A stretch of DNA of 25,860 bases from an uncultured Rhodospirillaceae bacterium (GCA_964435655.1 CAYTAE010000003.1:1-25860), one strand, 5' to 3'. Shown: positions 290-18,388, counted from the stretch's first letter. The notes: generated by a model not told the origin, from the sequence alone. Translations and numbers: made by a program.

Positions 290-2193
290 TGCCGCGAATT
301 CACAAAACAAAGGCGAGCTTCACCGCCGGCGAACTATCGCCACTTCTTTATGGCCGTAGTGACCTTCGCGCCTATGCCAATGGAGCGGCAAAATTACGCA
401 ACACGTTTATCTTTCCAACGGGTGGGGTGCAACGGCGGGCCGGACTGCGTTTCATCGACACGGCATTAGGCACCGGCAGGTTGGTCGCCTTCGAATTTAA
501 TACCGAGCAGGTCTACCTGCTCGTCTTTACCGATTTTAAGATAGATGTTTACCGCGACGGGCAGTGGGTTGCGGAATTCGCGACACCATGGAGTGCGGCG
601 ATGCTTCCCCAGATCAACTGGACGCAAAGTGCCGACACCCTTCTTGTCGTTCACCCGGACGCTATTCCACACAACATTACTCGGACATCGGATACGGCCT
701 GGGTGATCAATACGTGGAGATATGTGACAGATGCCGAAGGCATGCATCAGCCTTATTTCAAATTTGCCGACGAAACCATTCAGATGCAGCCAAGCGCGAC
801 GACCGGCACCATCACCCTGACAACCACGGACGATGTCTTTGTCAGCGGTCATGGCGGGCTACGATTTCGAATTGAGGAGAAGGAAGTCACGATCCTCGGC
901 ATTATTTCCCCAACCCAGGCAACCGCCAGCGTCCTGGAGACCTTGAATTCAACCAATTTCACCAAGGACTGGGACGAACCGGCCTTTTCCAATGCACATG
1001 GCTATCCGGTTTCCGTCGCCTTTCATCAAGACCGCCTGATCGTTGGCGGGTCCCGGGACCTTCCGAACCGGCTCTGGATGTCGAAATCCTCCGACATCTT
1101 CAACTTCAATATCGGCACCGGGCTTGACGATGAAGCAATCGAGTTTGGGATCCTTTCCGATCAGGTCAACGCCATTCGCGCGGTCTTCTCTGGCCGACAT
1201 TTGCAAGTCTTTACCTCTGGTGCCGAATGGATGGTAACAGGCGATCCGCTAACACCGACGACGGTGCAGTTGCGCCGCCAAACCCGGGTCGGCTCCCCCA
1301 TCGACCGCACCCTGCCGCCAATCAACGTCGATGGGGCAACGCTATTTCTCGCGCGGAACAACAAGGAAATACGGGAGTTTCTTTTCACGGATGTCGAGCA
1401 GGCTTATCAGGCAAACGATCTGGCCCTGCTGTCCCAACATTTGATGAATACACCCGTCGATCAGGATTTCGACCAATCCCGCCGACTTGTGCATATCGTT
1501 ATGAACGATGGCAACCTTGCCACGGTAACTGCCTTTCGGGCCGAACAGGTGACCGCCTGGACGTTGCAGGAAACGGATGGAAGTTTTCTTTCCGTCGCGG
1601 TGGTTGGCAATGACGTTTACGTTCTTGTTCAGCGCGACGGCGGCATTCTGATTGAACAATTTGATGAAAGTTTCTACACCGATTCGGCGCTTAGCGGTCA
1701 AAGCGGCACACCCACAACCACCTGGAGTGGACTCGATCACCTGGAAGGCGAGACGGTAAAAATTATTGCCGATGGAATCTTTCAACAGGATGCCATCGTA
1801 GCCGGCGGTGGCATTACCCTTGACGAACCGGCATCAAGCGTCGAAATCGGCCTGCCCTACACCCATGTTATCGAACCCCTGCCGCCCACCTTCGACGGCG
1901 CGTTCGGCAATCGCCAAGGGGCGGCCCTGCGGCTCATCGAAGCCGCCTTTCATCTCCACGAGACGAAGGCGTTGCGCGTCGATGTCGGCAATGGATTAAA
2001 GGAACTTTCCTTCAAGTCGCTGGGCGTTCCCAGCATTTTGGACACTGCCCCAATCGCCTTTACCGGCAACAAGCGGGTCCGCGCCCTCGGCTGGAAAGCA
2101 ACAGGGGCGGCCCCCCTTTGGCGCATTGCACAGGACACGCCGGTTCCCTTCACCCTTTTGTCCGTCACAACCGAAACCATGGTGAACGACTAA
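289..2193 (+). CDS. Tail tubular protein B / nozzle (T7 gp12, P22 gp10, BPP-1-like)
   Basis: 634 aa; N-terminal SFTAGELSPLLYGRSDL...GGVQRRAG motif typical of podovirus nozzle proteins; YPVSVAFHQDRL and RLWMSKSSDIFNF beta-propeller-like segments. Confidence 0.85.
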   Translation: MPRIHKTKASFTAGELSPLLYGRSDLRAYANGAAKLRNTFIFPTGGVQRRAGLRFIDTALGTGRLVAFEFNTEQVYLLVFTDFKIDVYRDGQWVAEFATPWSAAMLPQINWTQSADTLLVVHPDAIPHNITRTSDTAWVINTWRYVTDAEGMHQPYFKFADETIQMQPSATTGTITLTTTDDVFVSGHGGLRFRIEEKEVTILGIISPTQATASVLETLNSTNFTKDWDEPAFSNAHGYPVSVAFHQDRLIVGGSRDLPNRLWMSKSSDIFNFNIGTGLDDEAIEFGILSDQVNAIRAVFSGRHLQVFTSGAEWMVTGDPLTPTTVQLRRQTRVGSPIDRTLPPINVDGATLFLARNNKEIREFLFTDVEQAYQANDLALLSQHLMNTPVDQDFDQSRRLVHIVMNDGNLATVTAFRAEQVTAWTLQETDGSFLSVAVVGNDVYVLVQRDGGILIEQFDESFYTDSALSGQSGTPTTTWSGLDHLEGETVKIIADGIFQQDAIVAGGGITLDEPASSVEIGLPYTHVIEPLPPTFDGAFGNRQGAALRLIEAAFHLHETKALRVDVGNGLKELSFKSLGVPSILDTAPIAFTGNKRVRALGWKATGAAPLWRIAQDTPVPFTLLSVTTETMVND

Positions 2194-2666
2194 TGGCAGC
2201 TTTAGCTACGATTGCAACGCTTGGTCTCAACATTTTTTCTGCACAACAGCAGGCGCGCGCCCAATCAAAACAAAACCTGGCGCAATTTGCCGCAAACGAC
2301 GCCGCTGCCAAAGCGCAAATTGCCGCCCTTCAGAGGACCGGCACGATTGAGGAACAACGCCGCCGCGATCTTTTGGAAAAAGAAACCGCCGCCCGACGCG
2401 CCCGTTTCGCCGGGCGGGGGCTTGCGGCTAGCGACGGCTCTGCTGCCGCAGTCCTTGGCGGGCTGGCAGAGGAAAGTCGGCTGGCGAACCGGGAAGACGC
2501 CTTCCTTCGCAACGAACGCATCCGTGAACTGGAAGCGGTGCGGCTGGCAAGGGGACGCATCGACCTTTTACAAGCAGCAGATGCCAGGGCGCGCGGGCGG
2601 CTGCAGACACTTCAGGGAGGCATCCCCCTCCTGCAAAGAGCCGGCACGTCCCTGTTCGACCGCTAA
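2193..2666 (+). CDS. Internal virion / ejection protein-like (T7 gp14-like), 157 aa
   Basis: Start moved to ATG 2193 (TAATG coupling). Ala/Gln-rich helical protein with hydrophobic N-terminus and RARFAGRG...DGSAAAVL motif; position after the nozzle gene fits. Confidence 0.55.
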   Translation: MAALATIATLGLNIFSAQQQARAQSKQNLAQFAANDAAAKAQIAALQRTGTIEEQRRRDLLEKETAARRARFAGRGLAASDGSAAAVLGGLAEESRLANREDAFLRNERIRELEAVRLARGRIDLLQAADARARGRLQTLQGGIPLLQRAGTSLFDR

Positions 2667-2703
2667 TCCAAAAACAACCCCATAACCGGAAGAGGTTTCA
2701 AGC

Positions 2704-3840
2704 ATGACTGAACTCACCGTCGGTGACGTACGGCCACGCGTGCAATATACGGCCGATGGCACACAGACAATTTTCGCCTATCCCTTCCCCGTTTTTGACG
2801 CCACCGATATCGAAGTCTTTTTCGACGATGGCGCAACGCCGACGTCCCACACAATTACTGACGTCGGCAGCAGCAATGGCGGCACCGTTGTTTTCGATAC
2901 ACCGCCCACAAATGGCATCCGCCTTACCATCCGACGCGATGCGCCGGTCGCACGTAGTACAGATTTTCAGGAAGGCGGTGATTTTCGGGCCACCGCCCTC
3001 AACGAAGAACTCGATAAACTGACGATGTTCGTGCAAACAATTGCAAGCACTTCGCAAGACGCAATCCACCAAAAAACCCACGACATCGATACCGACATGG
3101 CCCTGCCGCCGGTTGCAACACGGGCAAACAAGCTGCTTGGTTTTGGGCAGTTTGGCGAACCTGCGGCTTATGACCGCGCCGCAACGGAAGCCGACCCCAG
3201 CCTTGGCGGCGAGTCGAATGAAGGCCTAAATCTGGGTGGTGGTGAAGGCGTCTTTGCACAAAAATCCGCGGTTACCCTGCGCTTCAAATCCCTGCTTGCC
3301 GGCGATGGCGTCAGCCTTGCCTCGGATGCGAACGAAATCACCCTTTCCGGCACCGAGCTTGACCTGCTCACCACCCAGGGAGATCTGATCGCCCAGGGCG
3401 CGGCAACGCCAGAACGCCTGGCATTGGGCACGGCCGATCAGGTGTTGAAGGTCAATGGGGCTGGAACAGACCTCGGCTGGGAAACGCTAAAGACTCTTGC
3501 CGGGGCGTCGGTTGATTTTCAGACCTTCGCGATCGCAACGGATGCGGCGGTAAGCCTTACCCCTCCAAAAAACAGCGGCATCGCCCTTGCATTCGGCCTG
3601 AATCAGCTTGGCGATTCGGGCGGCGCGCTCTTTTCCTGGCGCGTGGATAGTTTTCGTTTTTGCGATTTAATCGCGAACATTTCCGGCGTCGAAGCAACAA
3701 CCGGCATCTTGACCGGCACGACGGGAAACACAAACACCGTCACCTATTCGGCCCATACGGACGGCAAGCTTTACATCGAAAACCGGCTTGCCAGCACCCG
3801 CAACATCGCCGTCCTGCTGTTCGCCACGGACCCTGCTTAA
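2704..3840 (+). CDS. Short tail fibre with T7 gp17-like N-terminal attachment domain
   Basis: 378 aa; YTADGTQTIFAYPFPVF...LTIRRDAP...DFQEGGDFRATALNEELDKLTM matches the gp17-type anchor; RBS GAAGAGG upstream. Confidence 0.8.
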   Translation: MTELTVGDVRPRVQYTADGTQTIFAYPFPVFDATDIEVFFDDGATPTSHTITDVGSSNGGTVVFDTPPTNGIRLTIRRDAPVARSTDFQEGGDFRATALNEELDKLTMFVQTIASTSQDAIHQKTHDIDTDMALPPVATRANKLLGFGQFGEPAAYDRAATEADPSLGGESNEGLNLGGGEGVFAQKSAVTLRFKSLLAGDGVSLASDANEITLSGTELDLLTTQGDLIAQGAATPERLALGTADQVLKVNGAGTDLGWETLKTLAGASVDFQTFAIATDAAVSLTPPKNSGIALAFGLNQLGDSGGALFSWRVDSFRFCDLIANISGVEATTGILTGTTGNTNTVTYSAHTDGKLYIENRLASTRNIAVLLFATDPA

Positions 3841-4136
3841 TGACAAAGAGAATGCGCACCCTGCGCGGGCAGATCCATGCTGCCCTTCCCGGCCTGATGG
3901 AAAAGGCGCTGATCGGCTATCGCCATTTCGCCGCCGAAACGCAGCCACGGGACCCCAAAGGCTTTGCCGCCCATCACGCTGCGTGTCGCGCCGCACTTTC
4001 CCACATGGAATTGCTGGTTCGACTCGCGCGTTGGGCAGAAACGAACGAAGGCAACGACGAGGAAATAAATGAAGACATGGCAAAGCTGATTGCCGAAGCG
4101 CGCACAGCCCTGACGGATATGGTTGATGAGGAATGA
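3840..4136 (+). CDS. 98-aa helical protein; candidate terminase small subunit
   Basis: Start ATG 3840 (TAATG overlap with the fibre stop); ATGA overlap with terL; basic N-terminus, acidic C-terminus. Function inferred from position only. Confidence 0.5.
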   Translation: MTKRMRTLRGQIHAALPGLMEKALIGYRHFAAETQPRDPKGFAAHHAACRAALSHMELLVRLARWAETNEGNDEEINEDMAKLIAEARTALTDMVDEE

Positions 4137-5605
4137 GCCAGCCGACATTCCCGGAATTCATCTGGCTGTGGAACCGCCTGCAAAATCTGTCCACGCCAAA
4201 ACTTCACCTGGAGATGGCAAGCTGGCTAGACGCACGCTGGCAGGCCGGCGACCGTGAACTTCTTCTGCTTGCCTTCCGCGATAGCGGAAAATCGACGCTC
4301 GCAGGCCTCTTTGCTGCCTGGCTGCTGAGCAACGACCGGAATTTGCGCATCCTCGTCCTTGCCGCCGAGCAGGAACTGGCAAACAAAATGGTGCGCAACG
4401 TCAAACAGATCATCGAACGCCACCCTCTGACCCGGGGTCTGAAACCAAAGCGGGCCGACCAATGGGCCGCGTCCCGGTTTACCGTCAACCGGCCGATGCG
4501 GCTTCGCGATCCGTCCATGCTTGGGCGCGGCATCAACGCGAACGTGACCGGAAGCCGGGCAGACGTTGTTCTTTGCGACGACGTTGAAGTGCCAAACACC
4601 TGCGACACACTTCCAAAGCGCGTAGATTTGCGTGTGAGACTTGCCGAAATTGACTATGTGCTGGTGCCAAACGGCCTGCAGCTCTACATCGGAACACCAC
4701 ACACCTATTACACGGTCTACGGGGAAACCCCACAGCCGGAAGCTGGTGAAACCCGGGCATTCCTCGAAGGGTTCAAACGGCTGGAGCTGCCGCTGCTCGA
4801 TAACGATGGAAAAAGCCGCTGGCCGGAACGTTTTTCCACGCAAAAGATTGCCGCCATCAAACGCCGCAGCGGGCCGAATAAATTCGCCAGCCAGATGCTG
4901 TTGCGCGCGGTGAACATCATGGAAAGCCGCCTCGACCCGGACCGCCTACGCCTTTACGAAGGCGAACTGAAGTACCGCGAATCAAACCGGGTGGCGACCC
5001 TGACCCTTGAAGGGAAGCGGCTGGTTTCCGCAAGCTGCTGGTGGGACCCCGCCTTCGGCGCGCCGGAACGCGGGGACAAGAACGTCATTGCCGCCGTCTA
5101 TACGGATGAAGAAGGCGGCTATTGGTTGCATCGCGTGCGTTACTTCGTCTGGGACCCGAAATCGAAAGACGATGAAGCCACCCAGCTTTGCCGCCAGGTA
5201 ACGAGATTTTTAAAAGAGCTGCACCTGCCGAGCATGCATCTGGAAACGAACGGGCTTGGGCGCTTTCTTCCCGGTCTGCTGCGACGCGAAATTGCAAAAG
5301 ACGGCCTTGGCACCAGTGTTCTTGAGGCCGTTTCGACGCGCGCCAAAGACCGGCGCATTCTTGATGCGTTCGACGCCGTGCTTGCGGCAGGTGCCCTGCA
5401 CGCCCATCGAAGCGTCTGGGAAACCCCGTTCATCACCGAAATGCGCGAGTGGCAACCCGGCTTGCATGTTCAAGACGACGGCCTTGATGCTGTCAGCGGC
5501 TGTTTGCTTGCCGAACCCGTCCGCCTGCCCGTCACCCCGGCACCAAACCGGCAGGACTGGCGCGGCAACGCCCCCGTCATCGCAAAAATGAATTTTAAGG
5601 TTTGA
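4133..5605 (+). CDS. terL: Terminase large subunit, T7 gp19-like
   Basis: 490 aa; Walker A AFRDSGKST, TGSRADVVLCDDVE (Walker B), coupling motif YIGTPH, nuclease acidic motifs WWDPAFG, LETNG and DDGLDAV. Confidence 0.92.
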   Translation: MSQPTFPEFIWLWNRLQNLSTPKLHLEMASWLDARWQAGDRELLLLAFRDSGKSTLAGLFAAWLLSNDRNLRILVLAAEQELANKMVRNVKQIIERHPLTRGLKPKRADQWAASRFTVNRPMRLRDPSMLGRGINANVTGSRADVVLCDDVEVPNTCDTLPKRVDLRVRLAEIDYVLVPNGLQLYIGTPHTYYTVYGETPQPEAGETRAFLEGFKRLELPLLDNDGKSRWPERFSTQKIAAIKRRSGPNKFASQMLLRAVNIMESRLDPDRLRLYEGELKYRESNRVATLTLEGKRLVSASCWWDPAFGAPERGDKNVIAAVYTDEEGGYWLHRVRYFVWDPKSKDDEATQLCRQVTRFLKELHLPSMHLETNGLGRFLPGLLRREIAKDGLGTSVLEAVSTRAKDRRILDAFDAVLAAGALHAHRSVWETPFITEMREWQPGLHVQDDGLDAVSGCLLAEPVRLPVTPAPNRQDWRGNAPVIAKMNFKV

Positions 5606-5619
5606 ATCAGGAGACCCAC

Positions 5620-5922
5620 ATGCAACCTCATTGGAACGCCGATCTTATTTGGTGGATCACCGCCGTCGAAATTCCAGCACTTGCCGGTTTGTTCTGGCTT
5701 ATCTGGCGCGCCCGTGGCGAATGGCAGGAATCCCTGCTACGCCTGCATCGCATTTTCGAAGAAGGGATCGACGCCCATCGTGACACCCTTGCCGCCTTCA
5801 AACTGGAAGTCGCAAAATCCTATGCGTCGATCGCCCTTCTGAAAGATGTCGAAAACCGGATCACGCGGCATTTGCAGCGGATCGAGGACAAGCTCGACAA
5901 TCAGATCCAGAGGCGGCGATGA
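5620..5922 (+). CDS. 100-aa single-TM plus coiled-coil protein (holin-like or lysis accessory)
   Basis: Start reassigned to ATG 5620 behind RBS CAGGAG; TM segment LIWWITAVEIPALAGLFWLIW followed by heptad-like LKDVENRITRHLQRIEDKLD. Confidence 0.6.
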   Translation: MQPHWNADLIWWITAVEIPALAGLFWLIWRARGEWQESLLRLHRIFEEGIDAHRDTLAAFKLEVAKSYASIALLKDVENRITRHLQRIEDKLDNQIQRRR

Positions 5923-6344
5923 ACGCCCGGGAAAATGCGCGGGAAAGCACGCGGCAGCTTGCCCGGCTGTTGGCAACGACGATCTGTGTGGAAAGCCAGG
6001 TCCACGCCCGCAAATCCCACCCGGGCAATGTCCGCGACATGGAGGCCATTGCGGCCACAATCCTGAACCGCGCCGCTCGGGAAAGGGAAAGCGGGATGCG
6101 CGGGAACCGTTGCGCACAAATTTGCCACGAAAATCTAGCGGCCCATTCGTTTGAACAAAACACGGACACGCCGCTGTTTAACATTGCCCTTCGCATTGCC
6201 ACGCGCGCCCTTGCCGGCGTGCTTGTTGACCCGACCGAAGGCGCCACCCGGTTTCATCCACGCAGCTGCTTTCCGGTCTGGGCCAAGGGCTGCACGCCCA
6301 CAGCCGAGATTGGCAACCACCTTTACTATCGGGAGGAACTTTAG
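5919..6344 (+). CDS. SleB/Hydrolase_2-like cell wall hydrolase (divergent)
   Basis: LATTICVE (catalytic Glu position), MEAIAATILNR, DPTEGATRFH, WAKG...IGNHLYY; the family QFS segment is not visible. Confidence 0.75.
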   Translation: MNARENARESTRQLARLLATTICVESQVHARKSHPGNVRDMEAIAATILNRAARERESGMRGNRCAQICHENLAAHSFEQNTDTPLFNIALRIATRALAGVLVDPTEGATRFHPRSCFPVWAKGCTPTAEIGNHLYYREEL

Positions 6345-6836
6345 ATGTTGGCCGCCCTGCTTGCCCAGATCGGGCTTCCGCTTTTAATCAACACGGTTGG
6401 CAGCGCCCTTGGCATGGTCGATCACCCGACCGCAAAATCCGCCGCCGGGGCGCTGAAAAACGTCGGCAACGCCATCGCGAAAGGCGCAATTTCACCGGAA
6501 GCCGTGCATGCGGCAAATCGGCATGTCGAACATATGGCAAAAATCGATGCCGACCGGGAAACAAAAATCTTACGGGAAATCAACCAGACGATTCGCACCG
6601 AAGTCCATTCGAACGATCCCTTTGTCCGGCGCATGCGCCCCACATTCGGCTACATTCTGGCCGCGACCTGGCTCGCCCAGATGCTAGCCGTCGCCTATGT
6701 CATTGCCTTTGAACCTGCGCGCGCCGGGTCCGTCATCGGTGCGATGGCGTCCCTGAGTGCGATCTGGAGCGTGGGCCTCGCGGTCCTTGGGATTTATGTC
6801 TACAAGCGGTCGAACGAAAAAATGGGGGCGCGTTGA
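6345..6836 (+). CDS. Holin resembling the GTA_holin_3TM family
   Basis: DPFVRRMRPTFGY motif, two C-terminal TM segments and a terminal KRSNEK tail; directly follows the hydrolase gene. Confidence 0.75.
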   Translation: MLAALLAQIGLPLLINTVGSALGMVDHPTAKSAAGALKNVGNAIAKGAISPEAVHAANRHVEHMAKIDADRETKILREINQTIRTEVHSNDPFVRRMRPTFGYILAATWLAQMLAVAYVIAFEPARAGSVIGAMASLSAIWSVGLAVLGIYVYKRSNEKMGAR

Positions 6837-7135: not shown

Positions 7136-8266
7136 ATGGCATTGGGTGTTTCCGGATTTTCCAGACTTTTTGAGGCCATCGCGCCTCTGCTGCGGTGCCT
7201 GCCGCCGGAAATGGCCCATGGCCTGACCATCCGCGCGCTTTCCCTGGGCCTCGCACCACGGGGTGGCGCGCCCGACAACCCCGTCCTCGCCACCGAATGT
7301 CTGGGCTTGGCCCTTTCCAACCCGATCGGCCTTGCCGCCGGGTTCGATAAGAATGCAGAAGCCATGGACGCCATGCTTCGTTTTGGCTTTGGCTTTGTCG
7401 AAATCGGCACGGTGACGCCGCGTCCCCAGGGTGGCAACCCGCGCCCGCGCCTTTTTCGCCTTGTCGAGGACGGTGCCGTCATCAACCGCCTGGGCTTTAA
7501 CGGCGAAGGCATGGCCCGGGCCGTGGCGCGATTGCAGCGCTATCGCGAAAAATCCGCCGCCGCAAACGGCCCCAAAGCGCATGGCATGATCGGCATCAAC
7601 ATTGGCAAGAACCGCGACACGAAAGACGCGGCCAATGATTACGCCATTGCCGCAGAAGGCCTTGCCGGTCTGGCCGATTATCTGACCCTGAACGTCTCGT
7701 CCCCAAACACGCCCGGGCTTCGTGACTTGCAGGCAAAGGAAAAACTGGAAGAAATTCTGGCTCGAACCGAGGCTGCAATGGCCGAGACTGCAACCGCCAC
7801 GCCTTCCAGAAAAAAACCGCCGCTGCTTTTGAAAGTCGCCCCGGATCTGGACGCCGACACGCGCGCCGACATTGCCGCACTTGCCCTTGAAGGGCGCATC
7901 GACGGCCTGATTGTCGGCAACACGACCCTTTCCCGGCCCGAACATCTGCAAAGCCCACGGCGAACGGAAGCGGGCGGCTTAAGCGGCCGGCCCCTCTTCC
8001 CCCTTGCGACCGCCTGCCTGTCTGATTTCTACCGGCTGACGGAGGGCCGCGTGCCCTTGATCGGCACCGGCGGCATCGCCAGCGGCGAGGCGGCGTATGA
8101 AAAAATTCGCGCCGGTGCGTCCCTGGTGCAGCTTTATACGGCGTTGATCTATGAAGGGCCGGGGCTTGTCCTGCGCATCAAGGCCGACCTTGCCCGGCTT
8201 CTCCGCCGCGACGGCTTTTCTCATGTGAGCGAGGCCGTTGGAAGCGCCCACCGCGACGGCAAGTAA
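7136..8266 (+). CDS. pyrD: Dihydroorotate dehydrogenase (quinone), class 2
   Basis: GLAAGFDKNAE, GTVTPRPQGGNPRPRLFRL, INRLGFN, NVSSPNTPGLRDLQ and GGLSG motifs; exact start uncertain. Confidence 0.97.
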   Translation: MALGVSGFSRLFEAIAPLLRCLPPEMAHGLTIRALSLGLAPRGGAPDNPVLATECLGLALSNPIGLAAGFDKNAEAMDAMLRFGFGFVEIGTVTPRPQGGNPRPRLFRLVEDGAVINRLGFNGEGMARAVARLQRYREKSAAANGPKAHGMIGINIGKNRDTKDAANDYAIAAEGLAGLADYLTLNVSSPNTPGLRDLQAKEKLEEILARTEAAMAETATATPSRKKPPLLLKVAPDLDADTRADIAALALEGRIDGLIVGNTTLSRPEHLQSPRRTEAGGLSGRPLFPLATACLSDFYRLTEGRVPLIGTGGIASGEAAYEKIRAGASLVQLYTALIYEGPGLVLRIKADLARLLRRDGFSHVSEAVGSAHRDGK

Positions 8267-8273
8267 GCCCCAT

Positions 8274-8302
8274 AAAAAAAGGGCCGCCCCGAAGGGCGAC
8301 CC
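8274..8302 (-). terminator. Rho-independent terminator of groESL
   Basis: Minus strand GGGUCGCCC-UUCG-GGGCGGCCC-U7: 9-bp stem with one G-U pair and a cUUCGg tetraloop, 25 nt after the groEL stop. Confidence 0.9.
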
Positions 8303-8327
8303 AATCTTTAGACGATGTTTTTCTGCC

Positions 8328-9962
8328 TTAGAATGCCGGCTCTTGCGGCATCATCGGCGGCGCCATCTTGCCGGGATCTTCTTCCGGCTTTTCGGCAACC
8401 ATCGCTTCTGTCGTGACCATAAGACCCGAGATTGAAGCGGCATCCTGAAGGGCGATCCGCACGACCTTCGCAGGATCAATGATCCCCGATTTGATCATGT
8501 TGACATATTTCGCCGTCTGGGCATTGAAACCAAGATTGTGGTCTTTGCCCTCAAGAAGCTTGCCCGCAACAACCGCACCATCTTCGCCTGCATTCGCAGC
8601 AATCTGGCGAGCTGGCGCTTCAAGCGCCCGGCGAACAATCTCAACGCCAACCTTCTGGTCTGGGTTGCCGGTCTTCACCTTGTCAAGCACACGCGTTGCG
8701 TAAAGAAGCGCCGACCCACCACCGGGGACAACGCCTTCCTCAACTGCCGCGCGCGTTGCATTCAACGCATCGTCAACGAGGTCTTTCCGCTCTTTCACGG
8801 CCGCTTCCGTTGCGCCACCGACGCGGATAACCGCCACACCGCCAGCAAGCTTGGCCAGACGTTCCTGCAGCTTCTCCTTGTCATATTCAGACGTCGTATC
8901 CCCAATCTGAGTACGGATCTGCGTGCAACGTGCCTTGATGTCGCCTTTCTTGCCGGCGCCATCGACGATCGTCGTCTCTTCCTTCGTGGCGCTGATCATC
9001 CGGGCGGTTCCAAGCATCGAAAGCGTAACGTTTTCGAGCTTGATTCCCAGATCCTCGGAAATCACCTGACCACCGGTCAAAATGGCGACATCTTCAAGCA
9101 TGGCTTTCCGACGATCGCCAAACCCGGGTGCCTTCAGGCCAAGAACCTTAAGACCACCACGCAGCTTGTTGACAACCAGAGTGGCAAGCGCCTCGCCTTC
9201 GATGTCTTCGGCGATCAGTACAAGCGGACGGCTCGCCTGCATGGCCGCTTCGAGAAGCGGCAGAATTGGCTGCAGGCTGGTGAGCTTGCCTTCATTGAGA
9301 AGAATGTAGGGATTTTCCAGCTCACAGATCATGCGATCCGGGTTGGTGACGAAATAAGGTGAAACATAGCCACGATCAAACTGCATGCCTTCAACGACAT
9401 CCAGCTCATCGTTCAGGCCCTTCGCCTCTTCGACGGTGATCACGCCTTCCTTACCGACCCGCTCCATGGCTTCGGCAATTTTGTCGCCGATTTCTGATTC
9501 GCCATTCGCCGAGATCGTGCCGACCTGCTTGACTTCCTTGCTGGTCGAAACCTTCTTTGCGTGCTTTTGAACATCCGCAACGGCGGCCTCAACGGCCAGA
9601 TCAATCCCGCGACGAAGATCCATCGGGTTCATGCCGGCGGCAACCGCCTTCACGCCTTCCCGCAGGATCGCATGGGCAAGCACGGTCGCCGTCGTCGTGC
9701 CGTCGCCGGCCTCGTCATTTGTACGACTTGCAACCGAACGCACCATCTGTGCGCCCATGTTTTCAAATTTGTCTTCCAGGTCAATTTCATTGGCAACCGT
9801 CACACCGTCCTTGGTGATGCGGGGCGTACCAAATGCCTTGTCCAGAACGACCGTGCGGCCCTTTGGCCCCAACGTCACCCGAACGGCATTTGCAAGCGTT
9901 TCGACGCCGCGCAGCATCCGCGTGCGCGCATCCACATTAAATAGAACTTCCTTCGCAGCCAT
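8328..9962 (-). CDS. groL: Chaperonin GroEL (divergent; no GGM tail)
   Basis: 544 aa; [42 protein letters not shown] and APGFGDRRK motifs. Confidence 0.99.
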
Positions 9963-9995
9963 GGTCTTCGACTCCTCTTGTCCTGACGGACTTCG

Positions 9996-10307
9996 TTATT
10001 TCTTCTTTTTTGCTTTCTTGCCGGTGACGATTCCCAAAATGTCGGATTCTTTCGAGATCAAGAGATCTTCGCCGTCAACCTTCACTTCGGTACCGGACCA
10101 TTTTCCGTAAAGGACCAGGTCGCCCACCTTGACGTCGAGCGGGATAAGCTTGCCTGCCTCGTTACGCGTGCCGGAGCCAACCGCAATGACTTTTCCCTCT
10201 TGGGGCTTTTCCTTCGCCGTATCGGGTATAATGATACCGCCAGCCGTCTTTTCTTCCGACTCCAGCGCTCTGATCAACACCCGATCATGTAGCGGCCTAA
10301 AATTCAT
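9996..10307 (-). CDS. groS: Co-chaperonin GroES
   Basis: RPLHDRVLI, mobile loop [30 protein letters not shown]; RBS AAGGAG. Confidence 0.99.
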
Positions 10308-10369
10308 GGTCGATTCTCCTTAAAAAGCGTTCATTCCAGGCAACCCGCAAGTCGCGCGCGCTGCCACCC

Positions 10370-10396
10370 TTGGCACTCTTTGTGTTCGAGTGCCAA
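10370..10396. promoter_or_regulatory. CIRCE element (HrcA operator)
   Basis: TTGGCACTC-N9-GAGTGCCAA, a perfect inverted repeat one base per arm from the canonical TTAGCACTC-N9-GAGTGCTAA, upstream of groES. Confidence 0.95.
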
Positions 10397-10397
10397 C

Positions 10398-10426
10398 CAT
10401 CTAAGTAAGCTTGGGGTGTCTGTCAA
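10398..10426 (-). promoter_or_regulatory. groESL promoter (-35 TTGACA, N17, -10 TAGATG)
   Basis: Minus strand CTTGACA-gacaccccaagcttact-TAGATG, immediately upstream of CIRCE so the operator covers the start site. Confidence 0.7.
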
Positions 10427-10469
10427 GAAAAACCACAAAAAACCTTGAGAACCCGCCCGAAAGCCCGAC

Positions 10470-12413
10470 TTAAATGCCCGGCGCGGCCAATTGGCTGACG
10501 GAGTCGAGCGAGCCCGGCTCTTTCCAGCCCTTGCCGGCAACCAAGTTCTTCTCGACATATTCAAGCAGGCTGGTGACGGCCTCTTCGACGGTGAGCGTAT
10601 CCGTATCGATGGTCAGTTCCGGCGTGCCCGGCGCTTCGTAAGGCGAAGAAACGCCCGTGAATTCCGCAATTTCGCCGCTGCGGGCCCGCTGATAGAGCCC
10701 CTTTGGGTCCCTCTGCTCACAGGTTTCCAGAGACGCCTTCACATAGACCTCGTGGAAGCCATCCGGCGCAATGGCGCGAACACGGTCGCGATCGGCCTGA
10801 TAGGGCGAAATGAAGGCGGTAATGACGATAAAGCCGGCTTCGGCAAAAAGGGCCGCCACCTGGCCGGCGCGACGAATGTTTTCCGCCCGGTCTTCCGGGG
10901 TGAATCCAAGATTGGCGTTCAGGCCGTTGCGCAAATTGTCGCCGTCGAGAACGTAGACCTGGTAGCCCTTGCGAAAGAGCTGGCTTTCAAGCTCGATGGC
11001 GAGGGTCGTTTTTCCGGACCCGGAAAGACCGGTCAACCAAAGAACGCCACTGTGATGACCGTTCATGTCCCACCGGGACGCCGGCGCCACACGATGATCC
11101 ACCTGGAAGACGTTTGTGGCCCTTCGCGTGACGGCTTGGCGTTGGTCGGGATAACCGTCCATGTTGATAATGCCACCACCAACAATCGCGTAATCTTCAA
11201 CCAGGACGAAACGGCCGGTGCGGACATTATCGGTAAACTCGTCCAACGCGACCAGGCCACGAGTGCGCAAGGTTATTTCCGCAACGGCGTTTTTCGGGAC
11301 CTCTTTTCCTTCACCGGAAGAAAGATCGGCCACGTCAACAATTCGATCGATGGACTGCACTTCGGCGCGATGCTGGCCGGTGTGAAGTTTCAACATGTAC
11401 TGGCTGCCCACCCGCAACGGCTTTTTTCCCAACCAGAAAATATTCGCGCGAAAGACGTTTGTTTCGACCGGCAGATTTTCCTCATGGCTCGCAATCTGGC
11501 CGCGCTCGACAAAAATCTGTTCCTGAAAAGTAATGGCGACGGACTGGCCGGCACTGGCGGCAAGGACCGGCACGGCGACGTTCCAGGTTTCAATGCTGGC
11601 CACCTTGGCCGATTTGTTCGAAGGCGAAAGCACCAGCGTATCGCCGACGCGCAGGCGACCGCTTTCGATTCGCCCAACGATAAGCCGACGGTTGTCGAAT
11701 TTATAAACGTCCTGAATCGGAAGCCGCAACGGCAGCTCCGTTTGCAAAACCGGCGCCTGAAAGCCATCGAGGGCCTCGACAATCGTCGGCCCCTCGTACC
11801 AGCCCATTTTTCCGGAACGCGTGGCGATGCAGTCGCCCTCGCGCGAAGAAACGGGCACAATATGCTGCGCCTCGACGCCGATCCCGGCCAGGTAGCTGCG
11901 ATATTCCTCCTCAACCTCGACAAAGCGGTCGCGGGAATAATCCACCAAATCCATCTTGTTAATCGCAACCACAACCTGACGCACGCCAAGAAGGTGCAGA
12001 AGATAGCCGTGTCGGCGGGATTGTTCCTGAACACCTTCATGGGCATCGATCACAAGCAGGGCGGCGTCAGAACTGGCGGCGCCGCTGACCATGTTTTTCA
12101 GGAATTCTTTATGGCCGGGAGCGTCGATGATGACGTAATCGCGTTTTGTCGTCTTGAACCAGATATGGGAAACGTCAATCGTAATGCCCTGGTCGCGCTC
12201 AGCCTGCAAGGCGTCCATAAGAAATGCCCATTCAAACGGCATCCCACGGCGTTTGCACATGGCCTTGATTTCTTCAAGCTTGCCCTCTGGAAGCGAGCCG
12301 GTGTCATGGAAAAGGCGGCCGACAAGGGTGGACTTGCCGTGATCGACATGGCCGACAATGACGACGCGAAGGGGTTCACCCCCCAAAGAACGTTCGGGCG
12401 CATGACCGGACAT
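10470..12413 (-). CDS. cysNC: Bifunctional sulfate adenylyltransferase GTPase subunit / APS kinase
   Basis: [14 protein letters not shown] and NKMD GTPase motifs; C-terminal [12 protein letters not shown] and LDGDNLR APS-kinase motifs. Confidence 0.96.
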
Positions 12414-13214
12414 CTACATATACCCTTCTACCCGGAGCCGCTCGAACGCGTCTTCCGATTCCTTGTCCTGGGCGCGACCGGCACGTTCCGAGACGTTTGT
12501 CGTTTCAAGTTCTTCAATGATTTCGTCAATGGTTGACGCCGTGGATAGGATGGTGCCCGTGCATGGCGCACAACCAAGCGAGCGATAGCGCGTGCCGTCC
12601 TTCGCAAAATAAAGATCAACCACCGGAATCTTTTCGCGCCGGATGTAGTGCCAAATGTCCACTTCCGTCCAATGGAGCAGCGGATGAATGCGAAGATGCG
12701 TGCCGGGCGCAAAATCCGTCTTGAACTGATCCCAGAATTCCGGCGGCTGGTCGCGGAAATTCCATTCCGCATGCTTGCCACGGGGGCTGAAAACGCGCTC
12801 TTTCGCACGCGTGCCTTCCTCATCGCGACGGATGCCAGCAAAGACACCGGTAAAACCATGCTCCGCAAGCGTCTGTTTCAGACCTTCCGTCTTCAAAGCA
12901 CTGCAGCAGGTCACGCGGCCCTTCTCCGGCCCCATGCCGTCCGCCAGGGCTTTTTTATTTTGGCCGACAAGCAATTGCAGGCCCCATTCCTTTGCCATGC
13001 GGTCCCGAAATTCGATCATCTCGGGAATCTTGTAAGAGGTGTCGACATGCACGACCGGGAAAGGCACATGGCCAAGGAATGCCTTGCGCGCCAGCCACAG
13101 CAGCACGTTGCTGTCCTTGCCCACCGACCACAACATCGCCAGCTTGTCGATTTTGTTGAAAGCTTCCCGAAAGATATAAACGCTTTGGCTTTCCAGCGCG
13201 TCGAGATGATTCAT
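12414..13214 (-). CDS. cysD: Sulfate adenylyltransferase subunit 2 (short type, 266 aa)
   Basis: [51 protein letters not shown]; start set at ATG 13214 (ATGA overlap with the cysH stop). Confidence 0.93.
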
Positions 13215-13939
13215 TCGTTTCTGGCCCAGCTTGCCTTGTGAATGCCGCATTCCGTTTTACCGTTTTCCGCCCAGCGACCGGCACGCGCTGCGTCGCCTGG
13301 GTTTACCCGTCGCGTGCAATGGGTGCAACCGATAGAAAGATAGCCATCTGCGACCAGGGGGTGAGGTGGCAGGCCCCGGTCCTTGAACGCCGCAACAATT
13401 TCGTCCGAAGTCCAACGCACCAGCGGATTAATTTTAATTTTTCCGTCCGACGCCTCGATCACCGGCAAAGTGGCGCGCACGTCGCCGTGAAACCGCTTGC
13501 GACCGGTGATCCACGCATCAAAACCGGCAAGAACCCGGTCAAGCGGGCGCACCTTGCGAAGGTCACAGCATGCGTCCCCGTCGCGGGACCATAATTCCCC
13601 ATCGGAATCTTCCGTTGCAAGTTCTGCCGCGTCGGGCCGGATTACCCGGACGTCGCGCAACCCCAGCTGCGCGACCAGTGCATCCCGGTAGCGGAGGGTT
13701 TCATCAAAAAGTTTTTGCGTATCCAGAAAAAAGACCGGCGTTTCCGGATCAATGCTTGCGACCAGATCCAGCAGCACCGCCGCCTCCGCCCCAAACGAGG
13801 ACATAAGGGCAATCTGACCCGGAAATTCGCGCGTGAGCATGACACGGAGAAGCGCCAACCCATCAAGATCTCCGTAAGCCTCCATAAGAGCCGCTGCACG
13901 CGCGGCGGCCTGGGCCTCTGTTTGCAAAAGCTCTGTCAT
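13211..13939 (-). CDS. cysH: Adenylylsulfate (APS)-type reductase CysH with [4Fe-4S] ligand motifs
   Basis: [42 protein letters not shown] and terminal ECGIH. Confidence 0.95.
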
Positions 13940-13974
13940 TTTGGCGCCATCCTAGTCGATGTTGCGGCAAGGCC

Positions 13975-14086
13975 TATTTAACAGAATAAATATGTTAAAT
14001 AAATTATATTTACACATATATTAGGTTATTTAAAAGAAAGATAACATATCTCAATGTAGTTTCCATGAAAATTACTTATATTTTAT
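13975..14086. promoter_or_regulatory. Very AT-rich upstream region of cysH with dyad TATTTAACA-N9-TGTTAAATA (13975-14001)
   Basis: Hand count 18 G/C in 112 nt (about 16% GC) in a GC-rich background; perfect 9-bp inverted repeat. Confidence 0.65.
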
Positions 14087-14192
14087 GTGGAATAGGCCGA
14101 ACCCAGAGGCGTTCCAGCGACCTTCTAAGCCCCTTCGATTTGGCAGCAGGCCGCACACCCCTTTCAAGGCACGACGTTTTTGTTTTAGGACT

Positions 14193-14567
14193 TCAGGAAA
14201 TGTCGTTGAGAGCCTGACGCAGGACCTTGATGCGAATTGGCTTCTTAAGACTTTGCACGCAAGGAAGACCAAAGGCATCGCCCAGAGAACGGGCGCTTTC
14301 CAGCAATTTTCCGCTATAGCCACTCATCACCAGGATTGGAATCTTGCATCCATCTTCCGCCAGATGGCGCAAAATCTCGATCCCATCGATTTCCGGCATC
14401 ACAAGATCCAGAACAAGAACCGTTGGCTTAAAGCTCGCAACCGCCTCCTTAAACGCCTCGGGGTCGATTGTCGTTGAAACCTCAAATCCCTCGCCCTCGG
14501 CAACCTCGCGAATGAGGTTGCAGATTTCCTGTTCGTCATCAATAACCAGGAGGCGTTTTAACGGCAT
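14193..14567 (-). CDS. Stand-alone response-regulator receiver domain (124 aa)
   Basis: VIDDE, VLDLVMP (phosphoacceptor Asp), MSG and KKP motifs; start at ATG 14567 behind RBS AGGAG. Confidence 0.92.
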   Translation of the reverse strand: MPLKRLLVIDDEQEICNLIREVAEGEGFEVSTTIDPEAFKEAVASFKPTVLVLDLVMPEIDGIEILRHLAEDGCKIPILVMSGYSGKLLESARSLGDAFGLPCVQSLKKPIRIKVLRQALNDIS

Positions 14568-14670
14568 GCGTTTTTCTCCTGTGGCCATGCGCCACATGAA
14601 ACCATATCCCTTTATAGGCAGAGCCACCTATAAAATAGGTAAACAAAAAGCGGTTGCAATCGCATTCCTT

Positions 14671-14688
14671 AAAAAAATATATTTTTTT
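14671..14688. repeat. Perfect 18-bp A/T palindrome AAAAAAATATATTTTTTT
   Basis: Read directly, in the divergent receiver/ctaA intergenic region. Confidence 0.8.
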
Positions 14689-14704
14689 TAAAACGAGACA
14701 AACA

Positions 14705-15745
14705 ATGGCCGGAACCATTCCAGTTCAAAACGCTGCCCGCGAACGACCGCTCGCGATCTGGCTTTTCCTGTGTGCAGGGCTTGTCTTCATCATGGTCATT
14801 CTGGGTGGCGCCACCCGGTTGAACCAGGCCGGACTTTCCATGGTTGAATGGCAACCGCTGATGGGCATTCTGCCGCCGCTTTCAGAACCCGAATGGCAGG
14901 AAACCTTCACGGCCTATCAAAATTTTCCTGAATATCAAAAGCGCAATTTCGGCATGACCCTTGGCGAATTCCAGGGGATCTTCTGGCTGGAATATGTGCA
15001 CCGTCTATGGGGACGGCTGATTGGCGCCGCCTTCTTTTTCCCATTTCTCTATTTCTGGTTTCGGGGAAGGATCAACGCCCAACATCTCCCCCGGCTGCTT
15101 GGGGTTTTTTCCCTTGGCGCATTACAAGGCTGGCTTGGCTGGTACATGGTGCAAAGCGGCCTGGTGGATAGCCCGGATGTTAGCCCCTATCGCCTCGCCG
15201 CTCACCTAACCCTGGCACTCTGCATCTATGCCCTTCTTTTCCGCATCGGCCTTGGCTTTCTTCATCTGCCGAAAGGCACCTTGCCGCGCGCGCTTTTCCA
15301 AACCATCGCGCGCAGCCTTCTGGGAGTCGTTGCCCTGACGGTGATTGCCGGTGCCTTCGTTGCCGGCACCGATGCCGGCCTGACTTACAACACCTTCCCA
15401 CGGATGGGGGCGGGCCTTGTTCCGGAAGATTATTGGGCCCTGGAACCTGCCTGGCGAAATTTCTTTGAGAACATTCCAAGCGTCCAGTTCAACCATCGGC
15501 TCCTTGGTATTTTCAGCCTAGTCAGCATCGGCGCCGTCTGGCTTTTTTCCTGGCGCGAAACGCTTTCGAAACGCGCCTGCACGGCGCTAACGCTTCTTTG
15601 CATCATGACCGTTCTGCAAGTCGGGCTTGGCATTGCCACGCTTCTTCTTGTTGTGCCGGTACCACTTGGCGTTGCCCATCAGGCGGGGGCGCTTCTACTC
15701 CTTACCCTCGCCCTATGGACCGACCAGGAAATGCGCCCGGCATAA
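14705..15745 (+). CDS. ctaA: Heme A synthase, COX15/CtaA type
   Basis: GGATRLNQAGLSMVEW, EYVHRLWGR, RLAAHL, QFNHR and HQAGA motifs; start set at ATG 14705. Confidence 0.95.
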   Translation: MAGTIPVQNAARERPLAIWLFLCAGLVFIMVILGGATRLNQAGLSMVEWQPLMGILPPLSEPEWQETFTAYQNFPEYQKRNFGMTLGEFQGIFWLEYVHRLWGRLIGAAFFFPFLYFWFRGRINAQHLPRLLGVFSLGALQGWLGWYMVQSGLVDSPDVSPYRLAAHLTLALCIYALLFRIGLGFLHLPKGTLPRALFQTIARSLLGVVALTVIAGAFVAGTDAGLTYNTFPRMGAGLVPEDYWALEPAWRNFFENIPSVQFNHRLLGIFSLVSIGAVWLFSWRETLSKRACTALTLLCIMTVLQVGLGIATLLLVVPVPLGVAHQAGALLLLTLALWTDQEMRPA

Positions 15746-15791
15746 GACATGCCCCCTTCCCTTTTCGTCAAGGAGTCTACATAACGTCATC

Positions 15792-16472
15792 ATGTCAGAT
15801 AGTCCCGTCGCCAATCTTGAAGCTGCCACCCACCTTCCCGCCAATGGAGAGCCGGCAAAACGGCTTGTCGTGTTGCTGCACGGCTATGGCGCCGACATGC
15901 ATGACCTGATTGGATTGGCATCCCATTGGACGGAGATGATCCCGGATGCGGAATTTATTTCACCCAATGCACCCGAGATCTGCGACGAACTGCCAAGTGG
16001 CCGCCAATGGTTTCCTGTCGGCGACCTTGATTTAGAGCGCATGTATGAAGGCGCATTAACAGTCGCGCCAATGTTGGACACGTTCCTCGATGCCGAGCTT
16101 GAAAAACGCGGCCTTACCGAACGCGACCTCGTTCTTATCGGTTTTTCCCAGGGAACGATGCTGGCCCTTCATGTCGGGCTTCGCCGGGTACAGGCACCGG
16201 CTGGCATCATCGGCTATTCCGGCGTACTGGCAGGCCCCGAACATTTGGCCGACGAAATCCTGGCAAAACCTCCCGTTCTTCTGATCCATGGTTCGGAGGA
16301 TCCCTTGATCCCCGTACAGGCACAGATCATGACGGAAAACGTCCTCACCGATGCCGGCGTTCGCGTAAAATCCCATGTTTCACAAGGGCTTGGGCATGGC
16401 ATCGACCCGGCCGGACTGGCCCTTGGGGGCCATTTTCTTGTGGCAGCCTTCGCCGGTGCCGCCGAGAGATAA
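15792..16472 (+). CDS. Phospholipase/carboxylesterase (alpha/beta hydrolase)
   Basis: LLHGYGAD, nucleophile GFSQG, HGSEDPLIP (Asp) and GHGI (His); start set at ATG 15792. Confidence 0.92.
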   Translation: MSDSPVANLEAATHLPANGEPAKRLVVLLHGYGADMHDLIGLASHWTEMIPDAEFISPNAPEICDELPSGRQWFPVGDLDLERMYEGALTVAPMLDTFLDAELEKRGLTERDLVLIGFSQGTMLALHVGLRRVQAPAGIIGYSGVLAGPEHLADEILAKPPVLLIHGSEDPLIPVQAQIMTENVLTDAGVRVKSHVSQGLGHGIDPAGLALGGHFLVAAFAGAAER

Positions 16473-16517
16473 ACAACGCAAGCGCCAAGACGCGACCACC
16501 AAAAGACGCGTCTGCCA

Positions 16518-17096
16518 TCAAACCCGTGTCGAAAGCCAGATCGCTAGACGCGACGCGCGCTTGATAGCGCCACTTAACACACCATAGGCCGGCGCATCTT
16601 GCGCACCATGGGAAATGGCAGTGTCCTTATGGGCCAGCTCGTCGGCCTGGAACGTGGCAATGGTTTCCTTCAATTCCGGCTCGTTCTCGCCAAGCCTGTC
16701 GATCTGTCCCTGATAATGTTCGCCGATCACGTCTTCGACAGCAGCCGTACACGCCATCGCCGCACGCTCTCCCAAAAGCGCCGTCGCCACCCCCAGGGCA
16801 TAACCGGCAACGTGCCAACATGGCGCAAGCAACGTCGGTCGCACGCGGCGATCAACAATCCATTCGTCAAAGACTGCCAAATGCGCGCGTTCCTGATCCA
16901 GCATGTGCTGCAAAATTTCTTTCTGGCCTGAGCGGCCAAGCACGGCCATCTGGCCCTCATAGATCCGAACCGCCCCATATTCGCCGGCGTGATCGACGCG
17001 GATCATGCGCGCAATCTCCTCCTCCGGCGAAGGATCGCCCGGAAGCCGCATGAATTTTTTTTGATCGTGAGGCTTTTCTTTTTCGCTGGACGTCAC
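16518..17096 (-). CDS. coq7: Demethoxyubiquinone hydroxylase (Coq7/CLK-1 di-iron family)
   Basis: RVDHAGEYGAVRIYEGQ, QERAH, AVEDVIGEHY and DELAH di-iron motifs; GTG start at 17096 (GTGA overlap with the dsbB stop, RBS AGGAAAGAGG). Confidence 0.93.
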   Translation of the reverse strand: MTSSEKEKPHDQKKFMRLPGDPSPEEEIARMIRVDHAGEYGAVRIYEGQMAVLGRSGQKEILQHMLDQERAHLAVFDEWIVDRRVRPTLLAPCWHVAGYALGVATALLGERAAMACTAAVEDVIGEHYQGQIDRLGENEPELKETIATFQADELAHKDTAISHGAQDAPAYGVLSGAIKRASRLAIWLSTRV

Positions 17097-18159: not shown

Positions 18160-18262
18160 GTCCCGCACCTCCTGATCCAGGCCGCATCCGTATTTGCCTG
18201 GCCCCAATAGAACGCCGAAGGCCATGCGCGCGCAAGCCCTCAGACTTTGATGCGTCTCACCA

Positions 18263-18290
18263 TTGACCGCGCCCGCTGGAAGACTAGGAT
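18263..18290 (+). promoter_or_regulatory. Putative tRNA promoter TTGACC-N16-TAGGAT
   Basis: Sigma70-like hexamers ending 11 nt before the tRNA. Confidence 0.5.
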
Positions 18291-18301
18291 AGGCCGCCAT
18301 A

Positions 18302-18388
18302 GCCCCTGTGGCGGAACTGGTAGACGCGGCAGACTCAAAATCTGTTGTCCGCAAGGACGTGGGAGTTCGAGTCTCCCTGGGGGCACCA
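18302..18388 (+). tRNA. trnL: tRNA-Leu (anticodon CAA), 87 nt, encoded CCA
   Basis: Acceptor GCCCCTG/TGGGGGC, D-loop TGGTAGAC, anticodon arm GCAGA-CTCAAAA-TCTGT, long variable arm GTCC-GCAA-GGAC, T-arm GGGAG-TTCGAGT-CTCCC, then ACCA. Confidence 0.97.

Follow-up and report, generated by a model that had tools for sequence, protein, structure and literature searches.

A chromosomal podovirus-type gene cluster of Alphaproteobacteria with one small gp14-like gene between nozzle and fibre

Results

One small gene separates the nozzle from the fibre

The stretch of DNA analysed here, which we call the window, is a whole contig of 25,860 nucleotides (nt) from an uncultured Rhodospirillaceae bacterium (GCA_964435655.1, CAYTAE010000003.1:1-25860). 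It begins inside a gp11-like tail adaptor gene and runs through a podovirus-type structural gene cluster, whose own upstream half it does not cover, into ordinary host DNA. Our subject is the tail module of this cluster, in which a gp12-like nozzle gene is followed by a gene for a protein of 157 amino acids (aa) and then by a tail fibre gene. The nozzle stop codon (TAA, 2191-2193) overlaps the start codon of the 157-aa gene (ATG, 2193-2195) by one base, giving TAATG; the 157-aa gene stops at 2664-2666 (TAA), and the fibre starts 37 nt on with an ATG at 2704. In the window, the interval from the 157-aa gene to the fibre holds no open reading frame (ORF). The coordinates thus bear out a preliminary description of this DNA, in which the nozzle was coupled directly to the 157-aa gene with the fibre 37 nt later. 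From nozzle to fibre N-domain the distance is 0.51 kb in the window, versus 5.9-12 kb in the 12 phages that have both markers.

The window nozzle is 57-82% identical to its chromosomal orthologues and 31-35% identical to tail tubular protein B of HTVC010P-type pelagiphages and YeP4-6; the counterparts in the closest phages carry that annotation, and an exact-sequence look-up of the window nozzle returned no record. Within the phage collection, no nozzle exceeded about 35% identity.

The 157-aa protein is gp14-like by position, profile and motif

The 157-aa protein is rich in Ala, Arg, Leu and Gln and has a hydrophobic N-terminus. Of 166 related loci, 128 have a member of its family by a hidden Markov model (HMM), and the gene's ratio of nonsynonymous to synonymous substitution rates (dN/dS) is 0.09-0.21, which together indicate that 2193-2666 is a genuine ORF and not a chance reading frame. 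Gene calling based on G+C content at third codon positions (GC3) misses the gene because its Ala/Arg-rich composition raises G+C at the first and second positions (GC1 and GC2), and genes in the relatives were called by conservation instead. The overlapping frame at 2212-2685 (+ strand, likewise 157 aa), which can mislead GC3-based callers, was considered as the gene and rejected: its GC3 is 0.72 versus 0.59, yet its translation is rich in Arg and Pro, as befits an off-frame artefact.

Among 40 orthologues, 22 match phrog_418, 'internal virion protein' (best 1.2e-11), single ones touch other PHROGs of that name, and just one touches phrog_805 (8e-5), the family in which a profile search places T7 gp14 (T7 gp13 falls in phrog_308). 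In HTVC010P (gp15) and YeP5 (160 aa), phrog_418 is the second small gene past the nozzle, that is, the gp14 position, and the 157-aa gene is the positional equivalent of these two genes, of T7 gp14 and of BPP-1 Bbp12. The orthologues align around the motif RRxALxRAxAxQRAxFGAxGV....GSAxAVLxGL, and a seven-sequence alignment finds a turn motif, G-x4-5-[DE]G[ST][AS] (in its fuller shared form RA..G-x4-5-[DE]G[ST][AS]), in the window protein, the YeP5 160-aa protein, HTVC010P gp15, Bbp12 and T7 gp14. An AlphaFold2 (AF2) model, with a mean predicted local distance difference test score (pLDDT) of 84, has helices at residues 2-74 and 82-151 that meet in the conserved Gly-rich turn, which implies a two-helix hairpin about 10 nm long. 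Among predicted viral structures (BFVD), this model is matched best (E 2e-3 to 6e-2) by podoviral proteins 140-240 aa long, several of which bear the name 'Internal virion protein (B)'; for BPP-1 Bbp12, the query-normalised TM-score (TMq) is 0.77.

Other searches were less telling. Foldseek against the PDB returned generic antiparallel coiled coils only (best E = 0.16), a result that is uninformative for a helical hairpin; a profile search of the family against PDB sequences gave only low-complexity, Q-rich matches; the single T7 gp14 sequence, compared with the family by hhalign, gave no match; and tblastn of the protein against 50,697 phage records gave none either, probably owing to composition filtering. 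The label 'gp14-like' given in the preliminary description is therefore supported in the sense of a gp14-class protein, by position, PHROG profile and hairpin-turn motif, while membership in the T7 gp14 family proper, for which neither hhalign nor Foldseek against the PDB gave a significant match, is not supported.

Large ejection genes are absent from complete clusters of relatives

Because the window begins within gp11, relatives had to supply the upstream genes. In L084 and L086, two close relatives whose nozzles are 82% and 77% identical to that of the window, the cluster is readable from end to end and is followed by the same host genes as in the window. Each of these clusters comprises 16 genes in 12.3 kb (12.35 kb in L084) between an S24 repressor gene and pyrD. 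From upstream, the order in the two loci is lysS, the divergent repressor, genes for proteins of 121, 148-152 and 70 aa (the last in L084; phrog_831), portal, Bbp19-like and scaffold, and then major capsid protein, 89 aa, gp11, nozzle, 157 aa, fibre, 98 aa, the large terminase gene (TerL), 100 aa, endolysin, holin and pyrD. The head and tail components are a T7-type portal (PF12236), a T7 scaffold (PF05396), Phage_capsid_2, a Bbp19-like protein (PF25181) and tail tubular proteins A and B. This core order is found again in about 80 loci from genomes and 80 from IMG/VR. The IMG/VR copies are mostly short contigs or predicted proviral regions, and those readable end to end do not include a phage genome of 35-45 kb.

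Portal, scaffold, major capsid protein, nozzle, fibre and TerL are the only proteins above 190 aa in the L084 and L086 clusters, which thus contain neither a gp15-class protein (about 700-750 aa, forming the periplasmic tunnel) nor one of the gp16 class (over 1000 aa, often with a lytic transglycosylase domain). phmmer searches for both classes were also negative in 80 genome loci of about 22 kb each: queried with T7 gp13-16, HTVC010P gp14-27 and the YeP5 post-nozzle genes, all ORFs of these loci yielded only the fibre N-domain and phrog_418 relatives. Across some 165 related loci, no homologue was detected of T7 gp15/gp16, BPP-1 Bbp11/Bbp10 or the large genes of YeP5 and HTVC010P. Large unassigned ORFs inside the clusters proved to be longer fibres, second LamG-like fibre proteins or host-type morons (GGDEF-EAL, chemoreceptor, radical-SAM), with no helical core protein among them. 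Two candidates for large internal proteins were rejected in this way: in Azospirillum, a 794-aa ORF lying between scaffold and capsid encodes a GGDEF-EAL signalling protein and has a chemoreceptor as its neighbour, and the 780-840-aa ORFs past the nozzle in IMG/VR loci carry the canonical N-domain and are long fibres.

The compact arrangement is common to homologous clusters. In 129 loci with a nozzle and a downstream fibre, the gap between the two is 100-800 nt in 81, with the small gene alone between them, and larger in 27, which hold extra small genes. The other 21, of Magnetospirillum type, have a gap below 100 nt, the fibre starting 11-29 nt past the nozzle stop (L019, L033, L038, L039, L040, L042, L046, L048, L057, L073, L079 and ten others). 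The 157-aa family HMM has no match anywhere in 20 of these and one about 6 kb downstream in L030; the loci with this shortest gap have an even more reduced tail operon. Related active phages with a compact nozzle-to-fibre arrangement were absent from the INPHARED collection. On all these counts, the preliminary description's claim that the large ejection genes are missing has held up: they are found neither upstream in the complete clusters nor as homologues elsewhere in the related loci, and the gap is shared by homologous clusters.

The locus is inherited with its host flanks

No integrase or replication domains were recognised in the L084, L086 and L087 clusters. Across genera, the locus adjoins the S24 repressor upstream (and lysS where that flank was read) and pyrD or other host genes downstream, pyrD being the neighbour in the window's lineage and in Azospirillum and Roseomonas loci. 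Element genes have dN/dS values of 0.03-0.37 (TerL 0.09), compared with 0.06-0.10 for groEL and 0.20-0.25 for pyrD, and their dS equals that of the flanking host genes. Pairwise identities of nozzle and lysS over 8 loci are correlated (Spearman 0.90, Pearson 0.98). These data indicate that the locus is vertically inherited and under purifying selection.

The nearest relative, represented by L087 and L088, is 89% identical in nucleotide sequence to the window cluster (157-aa protein, 93%). An in-frame deletion of about 1.9 kb in both has fused the N-terminus of the 70-aa phrog_831 protein to the Bbp19-like C-terminus and removed the whole portal (Table 1); all other cluster genes are intact.

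Other genes of the window and the variable parts of the cluster

The remaining features of the window are listed in Table 1. The gp11 part is 94% identical to the C-terminus of the 189-aa L087 gene, and the fibre matches the HTVC010P gp22 fibre in phmmer. The 98-aa gene lies directly upstream of terL, an arrangement kept in relatives. Position and sequence suggest that the 100-106-aa protein following TerL may be a spanin-like or other lysis-associated protein. Each of the nine visible genes is intact and matches its counterparts in relatives in length, and promoter- or terminator-like sites in the gene block do not exceed shuffled expectation.

Table 1. Features of the window, with the gene fused by deletion in the nearest relative
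Feature	Position	Strand	Basis
gp11-like tail adaptor (tail tubular protein A), 3' part, 94 codons, cut by contig start	2..289	+	phrog_394 'tail protein' 3.5e-14
gp12-like nozzle (tail tubular protein B), 634 aa	289..2193	+	phrog_376, 3.6e-147
Small internal-virion (ejection-class) protein, 157 aa	2193..2666	+	phrog_418 'internal virion protein' 3.2e-05
Spacer, 37 nt, with ribosome-binding site AAGAGG (2690-2695), no gene	2667..2703	+	sequence
Tail fibre, 378 aa, T7-type N-terminal (tail-attachment) domain	2704..3840	+	phrog_1640 4.8e-31; PF03906 weak
98-aa protein, candidate small terminase by position only	3840..4136	+	phrog_31793 4.1e-24, function unknown
Large terminase TerL, 490 aa	4133..5605	+	phrog_38, 3.7e-72
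Membrane-anchored coiled-coil protein, 100-106 aa	5602..5922	+	phrog_29007 3.9e-28; weak phrog_462 'lipoprotein'
SleB-type cell-wall hydrolase (endolysin), 141 aa	5919..6344	+	PF07486 Hydrolase_2 2.1e-08; phrog_938
Holin with three transmembrane segments, 163 aa, last gene of the element	6345..6836	+	PF11351 GTA_holin_3TM 1.7e-12; phrog_3427
Host pyrD	7136-8266		first host gene after holin
Fused gene of the nearest relative	L087:4914-5418, L088:1813-2317 vs L084:5222-7370		comparison of relatives

Downstream of the element lie pyrD, groEL, groES and cysNC, in the same synteny in L084, L086 and L087. The rest of the window to its end (7136-25860) is ordinary host DNA that, besides these, carries two genes of the 3'-phosphoadenosine 5'-phosphosulfate (PAPS) reductase family (cysD/cysH-like), ctaA, COQ7 and genes for a carboxylesterase, a glycosyltransferase, a DUF547 protein and an M48 peptidase; it holds no competence genes and no more phage genes. 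Read contigs containing parts of the window, from two runs, were fragments of 170-680 nt at about 3-6x depth, none of which extended past the window start.

In the upstream half as read in L084, the S24 repressor (L084:3536-4168, - strand) is a 210-aa protein with helix-turn-helix (HTH) and Peptidase_S24 domains (CI/LexA-type), divergent upstream of the cluster in most relatives, with equivalents in 54 loci. Ahead of the 70-aa gene and the portal, L084:5084-5222 carries a sigma-70-like promoter with a G+C-rich hairpin behind it, a combination conserved in L087; the predicted promoter and hairpin may be a late-operon control point. phrog_831 adjoins the portal upstream in HTVC010P too. The 148-aa family (L084:4638-5084; its counterpart would lie upstream of the window start) is specific to the element, with 464 members, an invariant GFRHCF...FTCVEAVKRVLG (His-Cys...Cys) and no Pfam or PHROG match. 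We rejected its identification as a permuted papain-type hydrolase: for an AF2 model with pLDDT 84, the best PDB match, the cysteine peptidase 3kw0, was non-significant (E = 0.28).

Several loci carry additional genes. GGDEF-EAL and methyl-accepting chemotaxis proteins lie between scaffold and capsid in Azospirillum-type loci (L077:4395-6779, L062:5820-7916), and a radical-SAM-like protein lies ahead of gp11 in Magnetospirillum (L038:8308-9342). Peptidoglycan-directed proteins recur in the variable slots of the cluster (L066:12590-13096, L054:7600-8007 and 5243-6205, L003:5635-6780, L044:7862-9355). Between the nozzle and the 157-aa-family gene of another Azospirillum-type locus (L119:11987-16062) are genes for a tyrosine-integrase-like protein (516 aa) and a serine recombinase (193 aa), which look like a secondary mobile-element insertion. 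Modules have also been rearranged: terL stands upstream and portal and scaffold downstream of the tail genes in some loci, and in others fibre and endolysin precede gp11 or lysis genes directly follow the 157-aa gene (L051, L064; L031, L049, L052, L082; L090, L091), so the cluster need not stay collinear.

Discussion

The cluster very probably lacks the large ejection genes and belongs to a domesticated element. The occurrence of the compact tail module across most of the related loci leads us to infer that loss of the ejectosome is ancestral to the family. Fixed flanks, co-divergence with them, purifying selection and the lack of recognised integrase or replication genes argue for a domesticated phage-derived locus, a pattern known from gene transfer agents (GTAs). 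We read it as a domesticated, GTA-like podoviral element (a 'viriform' in the terms of the International Committee on Taxonomy of Viruses, ICTV) in which the 157-aa gene encodes the sole internal-virion protein of the tail module, the best of the readings considered and one to which we give an even chance. Two features by which GTAs are recognised are present, namely a phage-derived structural cluster without recognised replication, integration or excision genes, and a fixed chromosomal locus that is vertically inherited under purifying selection.

Several points weigh against this reading. A T=7 capsid like that of the 35-kb relatives, should the element have one, could accommodate all 12.3 kb of the locus, unlike the heads of classical GTAs, and the inability of a GTA to transmit its own complete locus may then not apply. 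The repressor is of phage type and not a host regulator. The homologue search covered the loci and not whole genomes, which places unlinked genes outside its scope, and very divergent helical proteins could escape sequence and profile searches. The window's lineage may be defective, given the loss of the portal in its nearest relative, and the element is known here from its genes.

For a domesticated element of this kind, we propose that the particle would assemble a T7-like head, portal, adaptor, nozzle and fibres without a large internal core. On fibre binding, the nozzle would open and the helical-hairpin protein would leave first, perhaps with the 70-aa phrog_831 protein, and act at the outer membrane, as is thought for gp14. 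No phage-built tube would cross the periplasm and inner membrane; the DNA would be released into the periplasm and imported by the recipient's own machinery, as reported for the gene transfer agents RcGTA and BaGTA. RcGTA is said likewise to need the uptake machinery of its recipient. By analogy with these systems, a route by periplasmic delivery and then uptake by the recipient would be plausible, and we hold the periplasmic step to be possible at somewhat less than an even chance. The preliminary description is in this respect partly supported: the gap is real and conserved, and we take it to be ancestral, while its mechanistic consequence, for which that description named periplasmic delivery with competence-type uptake, ejection proteins encoded elsewhere or an inability to inject, is left as a proposal.

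Several other accounts of the missing genes have to be weighed. The particle might retain full injection, with channel and cell-wall functions supplied by unlinked genes, or by small cluster proteins (the 70-aa phrog_831, 148-aa and 157-aa proteins) together with peptidoglycan-binding or lytic proteins. RcGTA has unlinked loci, and such a division of labour would fit the PG_binding_1 proteins in variable slots of many relatives (some between scaffold and capsid), the RlpA-like protein with a double-psi beta-barrel (DPBB) right after the 157-aa gene in L066 and L054, the PG-binding lysozyme-like protein of L054, and the 470-550-aa proteins in which an H...NC motif at the N-terminus is combined with PG-binding repeats at the C-terminus; the invariant motifs of the 148-aa family and the portal-adjacent phrog_831 of HTVC010P also speak for it. 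We nevertheless consider retained injection unlikely, as L084, L086 and L087 are without extra PG proteins and have the lysis-cassette endolysin as their sole hydrolase, the 148-aa model has no significant structural match, the modelled hairpin would be too short to span a Gram-negative envelope alone, and no homologue of a known large ejection protein turned up in the 80 genome loci. If, instead, particles were made for a purpose other than DNA delivery, such as regulated lysis with DNA release, or killing or adhesion, no ejectosome would be needed. The complete lysis cassette at the end of the cluster, the divergent S24 repressor beside it in relatives and the loss of even the 157-aa gene in lineages with the fibre 11-29 nt past the nozzle are all compatible with this, but terminase, portal, scaffold and capsid are conserved under purifying selection, which argues for DNA-filled heads, and the fibres diversify like receptor-binding proteins. 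This account is in our view improbable.

The missing genes could also be part of decay, the window's lineage carrying a defective remnant. The portal deletion in L087 and L088 speaks for such decay, and the window's own upstream half is not covered; the L087 and L088 assemblies may, however, stem from one sample. The intactness of the nine visible genes speaks against decay, as do the dN/dS values between the window and L087 (0.03-0.32; nozzle 0.11, TerL 0.09, 157-aa gene 0.09), which are no higher than in deeper comparisons or for groEL and pyrD. Moreover, the compact nozzle, 157-aa and fibre arrangement is shared with lineages whose portal is intact, so the ejection genes would have been lost long before any recent decay, and we judge decay to be a distinctly unlikely explanation. 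That the window starts within the cluster would allow an ordinary prophage with gp15/gp16, integrase and replication module further upstream. This we reject as scarcely credible: upstream of the portal, the syntenic relatives have just three small genes, the S24 repressor and then lysS, the flanks are conserved and diverge together with the cluster across genera, and the IMG/VR loci read end to end share the core order and are not phage genomes of 35-45 kb. An intact temperate prophage is likewise rejected, since L084, L086 and L087 have no integrase, att site or replication module and the nearest phage proteins are at most 35% identical.

Carriers of the element include Azospirillum, Magnetospirillum, Micavibrio, Caenispirillum, Roseomonas and many marine metagenome-assembled genomes (MAGs). 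Strains that can be grown and have an intact cluster include Azospirillum brasilense (L077), Caenispirillum bisanense JCM 14346 (L035), Magnetospirillum sp. UT-4 (L073) and Micavibrio aeruginosavorus (L066), and NZ_CP195303.1, OZ271840.1 and OZ246000.1 are complete genomes of carriers. In genome and IMG/VR records the cluster is now labelled as hypothetical proteins or as a short 'prophage'. We found no published description of such an element in the searchable literature, and the Micavibrio genome paper makes no mention of the cluster. In a comparative genomics study of Azospirillum, a phage lysozyme was the only core phage-related gene and a podovirus-type cluster is not mentioned (PMC3899980); Azospirillum lipoferum strains and strain B510 release particles with about 10 kb of host DNA, which were attributed to RcGTA-like regions (PMC3899980). 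The podovirus-type cluster is present in Azospirillum genomes (L059, L062, L068, L077), and the source locus of the 10-kb particles may deserve re-examination.

Our broadest suggestion is a tentative one, and we lean somewhat against it as a whole: that this is an ancient podovirus-type GTA across Rhodospirillales-grade Alphaproteobacteria that largely lack RcGTA, with an ejectosome reduced to one gp14-class hairpin (in some lineages to none) and recipient-dependent entry, and hence a third independent convergence on periplasmic delivery and competence-type uptake. If true, it would add a podovirus-derived lineage to the known GTAs, in an order with plant-associated, magnetotactic and predatory bacteria. 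If particles are made and DNA is transferred, the element would be a natural minimal system showing what a T7-like tail does without a trans-envelope channel. Loss of ejection proteins may be a general signature of phage domestication or even a cause of it, because the recipient then controls DNA entry.

The nearest known counterparts of the element are podoviruses and GTAs. Like T7, it has a small helical protein right after the nozzle, whose turn motif is also present in T7 gp14, and T7-type portal, scaffold, gp11, gp12 and fibre N-domain; T7 differs in encoding gp13 (phrog_308), gp15 and gp16 at the post-nozzle position, for which the element has no counterpart, and in its gp14, which belongs to phrog_805 and not, like the 157-aa protein, to phrog_418. 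HTVC010P-type pelagiphages and YeP4-6 have the nearest phage nozzles and the same phrog_418 protein past the nozzle, but they are free phages of 34-36 kb with a gp13-like or acetyltransferase gene and then another 5-10 kb of genes ahead of the fibre (for proteins of 708, 430 and 841 aa in YeP5; gp16-21 in HTVC010P). BPP-1 (Rauchvirus) has the same order of portal, small gene, Bbp19, scaffold, major capsid protein, two small genes, gp11-like gene, nozzle, small internal virion protein and fibre. Two further genes that the element lacks, for Bbp11 (720 aa, with a lytic transglycosylase) and Bbp10 (2052 aa), separate Bbp12 from the BPP-1 fibre, however, and the 42.5-kb phage is temperate, possessing an att site and replication genes.

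Among GTAs, BaGTA of Bartonella is likewise a domesticated phage cluster of similar size and is coupled to run-off replication; its gene set and order differ from those of the element, its published description placing the terminase beside the portal and listing no tail-tubular genes (PMC3610622). RcGTA (Rhodogtaviriformidae) is siphovirus-like, with an HK97-type module, a prohead protease, a tape measure and the g1-g15 gene order, whereas the element is T7-like and podoviral, has scaffold and tail-tubular proteins, occurs mainly in Rhodospirillales-grade lineages and is known from genes alone; the element does not qualify as RcGTA-like. The reliance on recipient uptake that the two would have in common is, for the element, only proposed, and the holin Pfam family PF11351 is the sole family that they share. 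Both are nonetheless vertically inherited, chromosomal head-tail clusters, about 12-15 kb in size and under purifying selection, in which neither replication nor integration genes are recognised.

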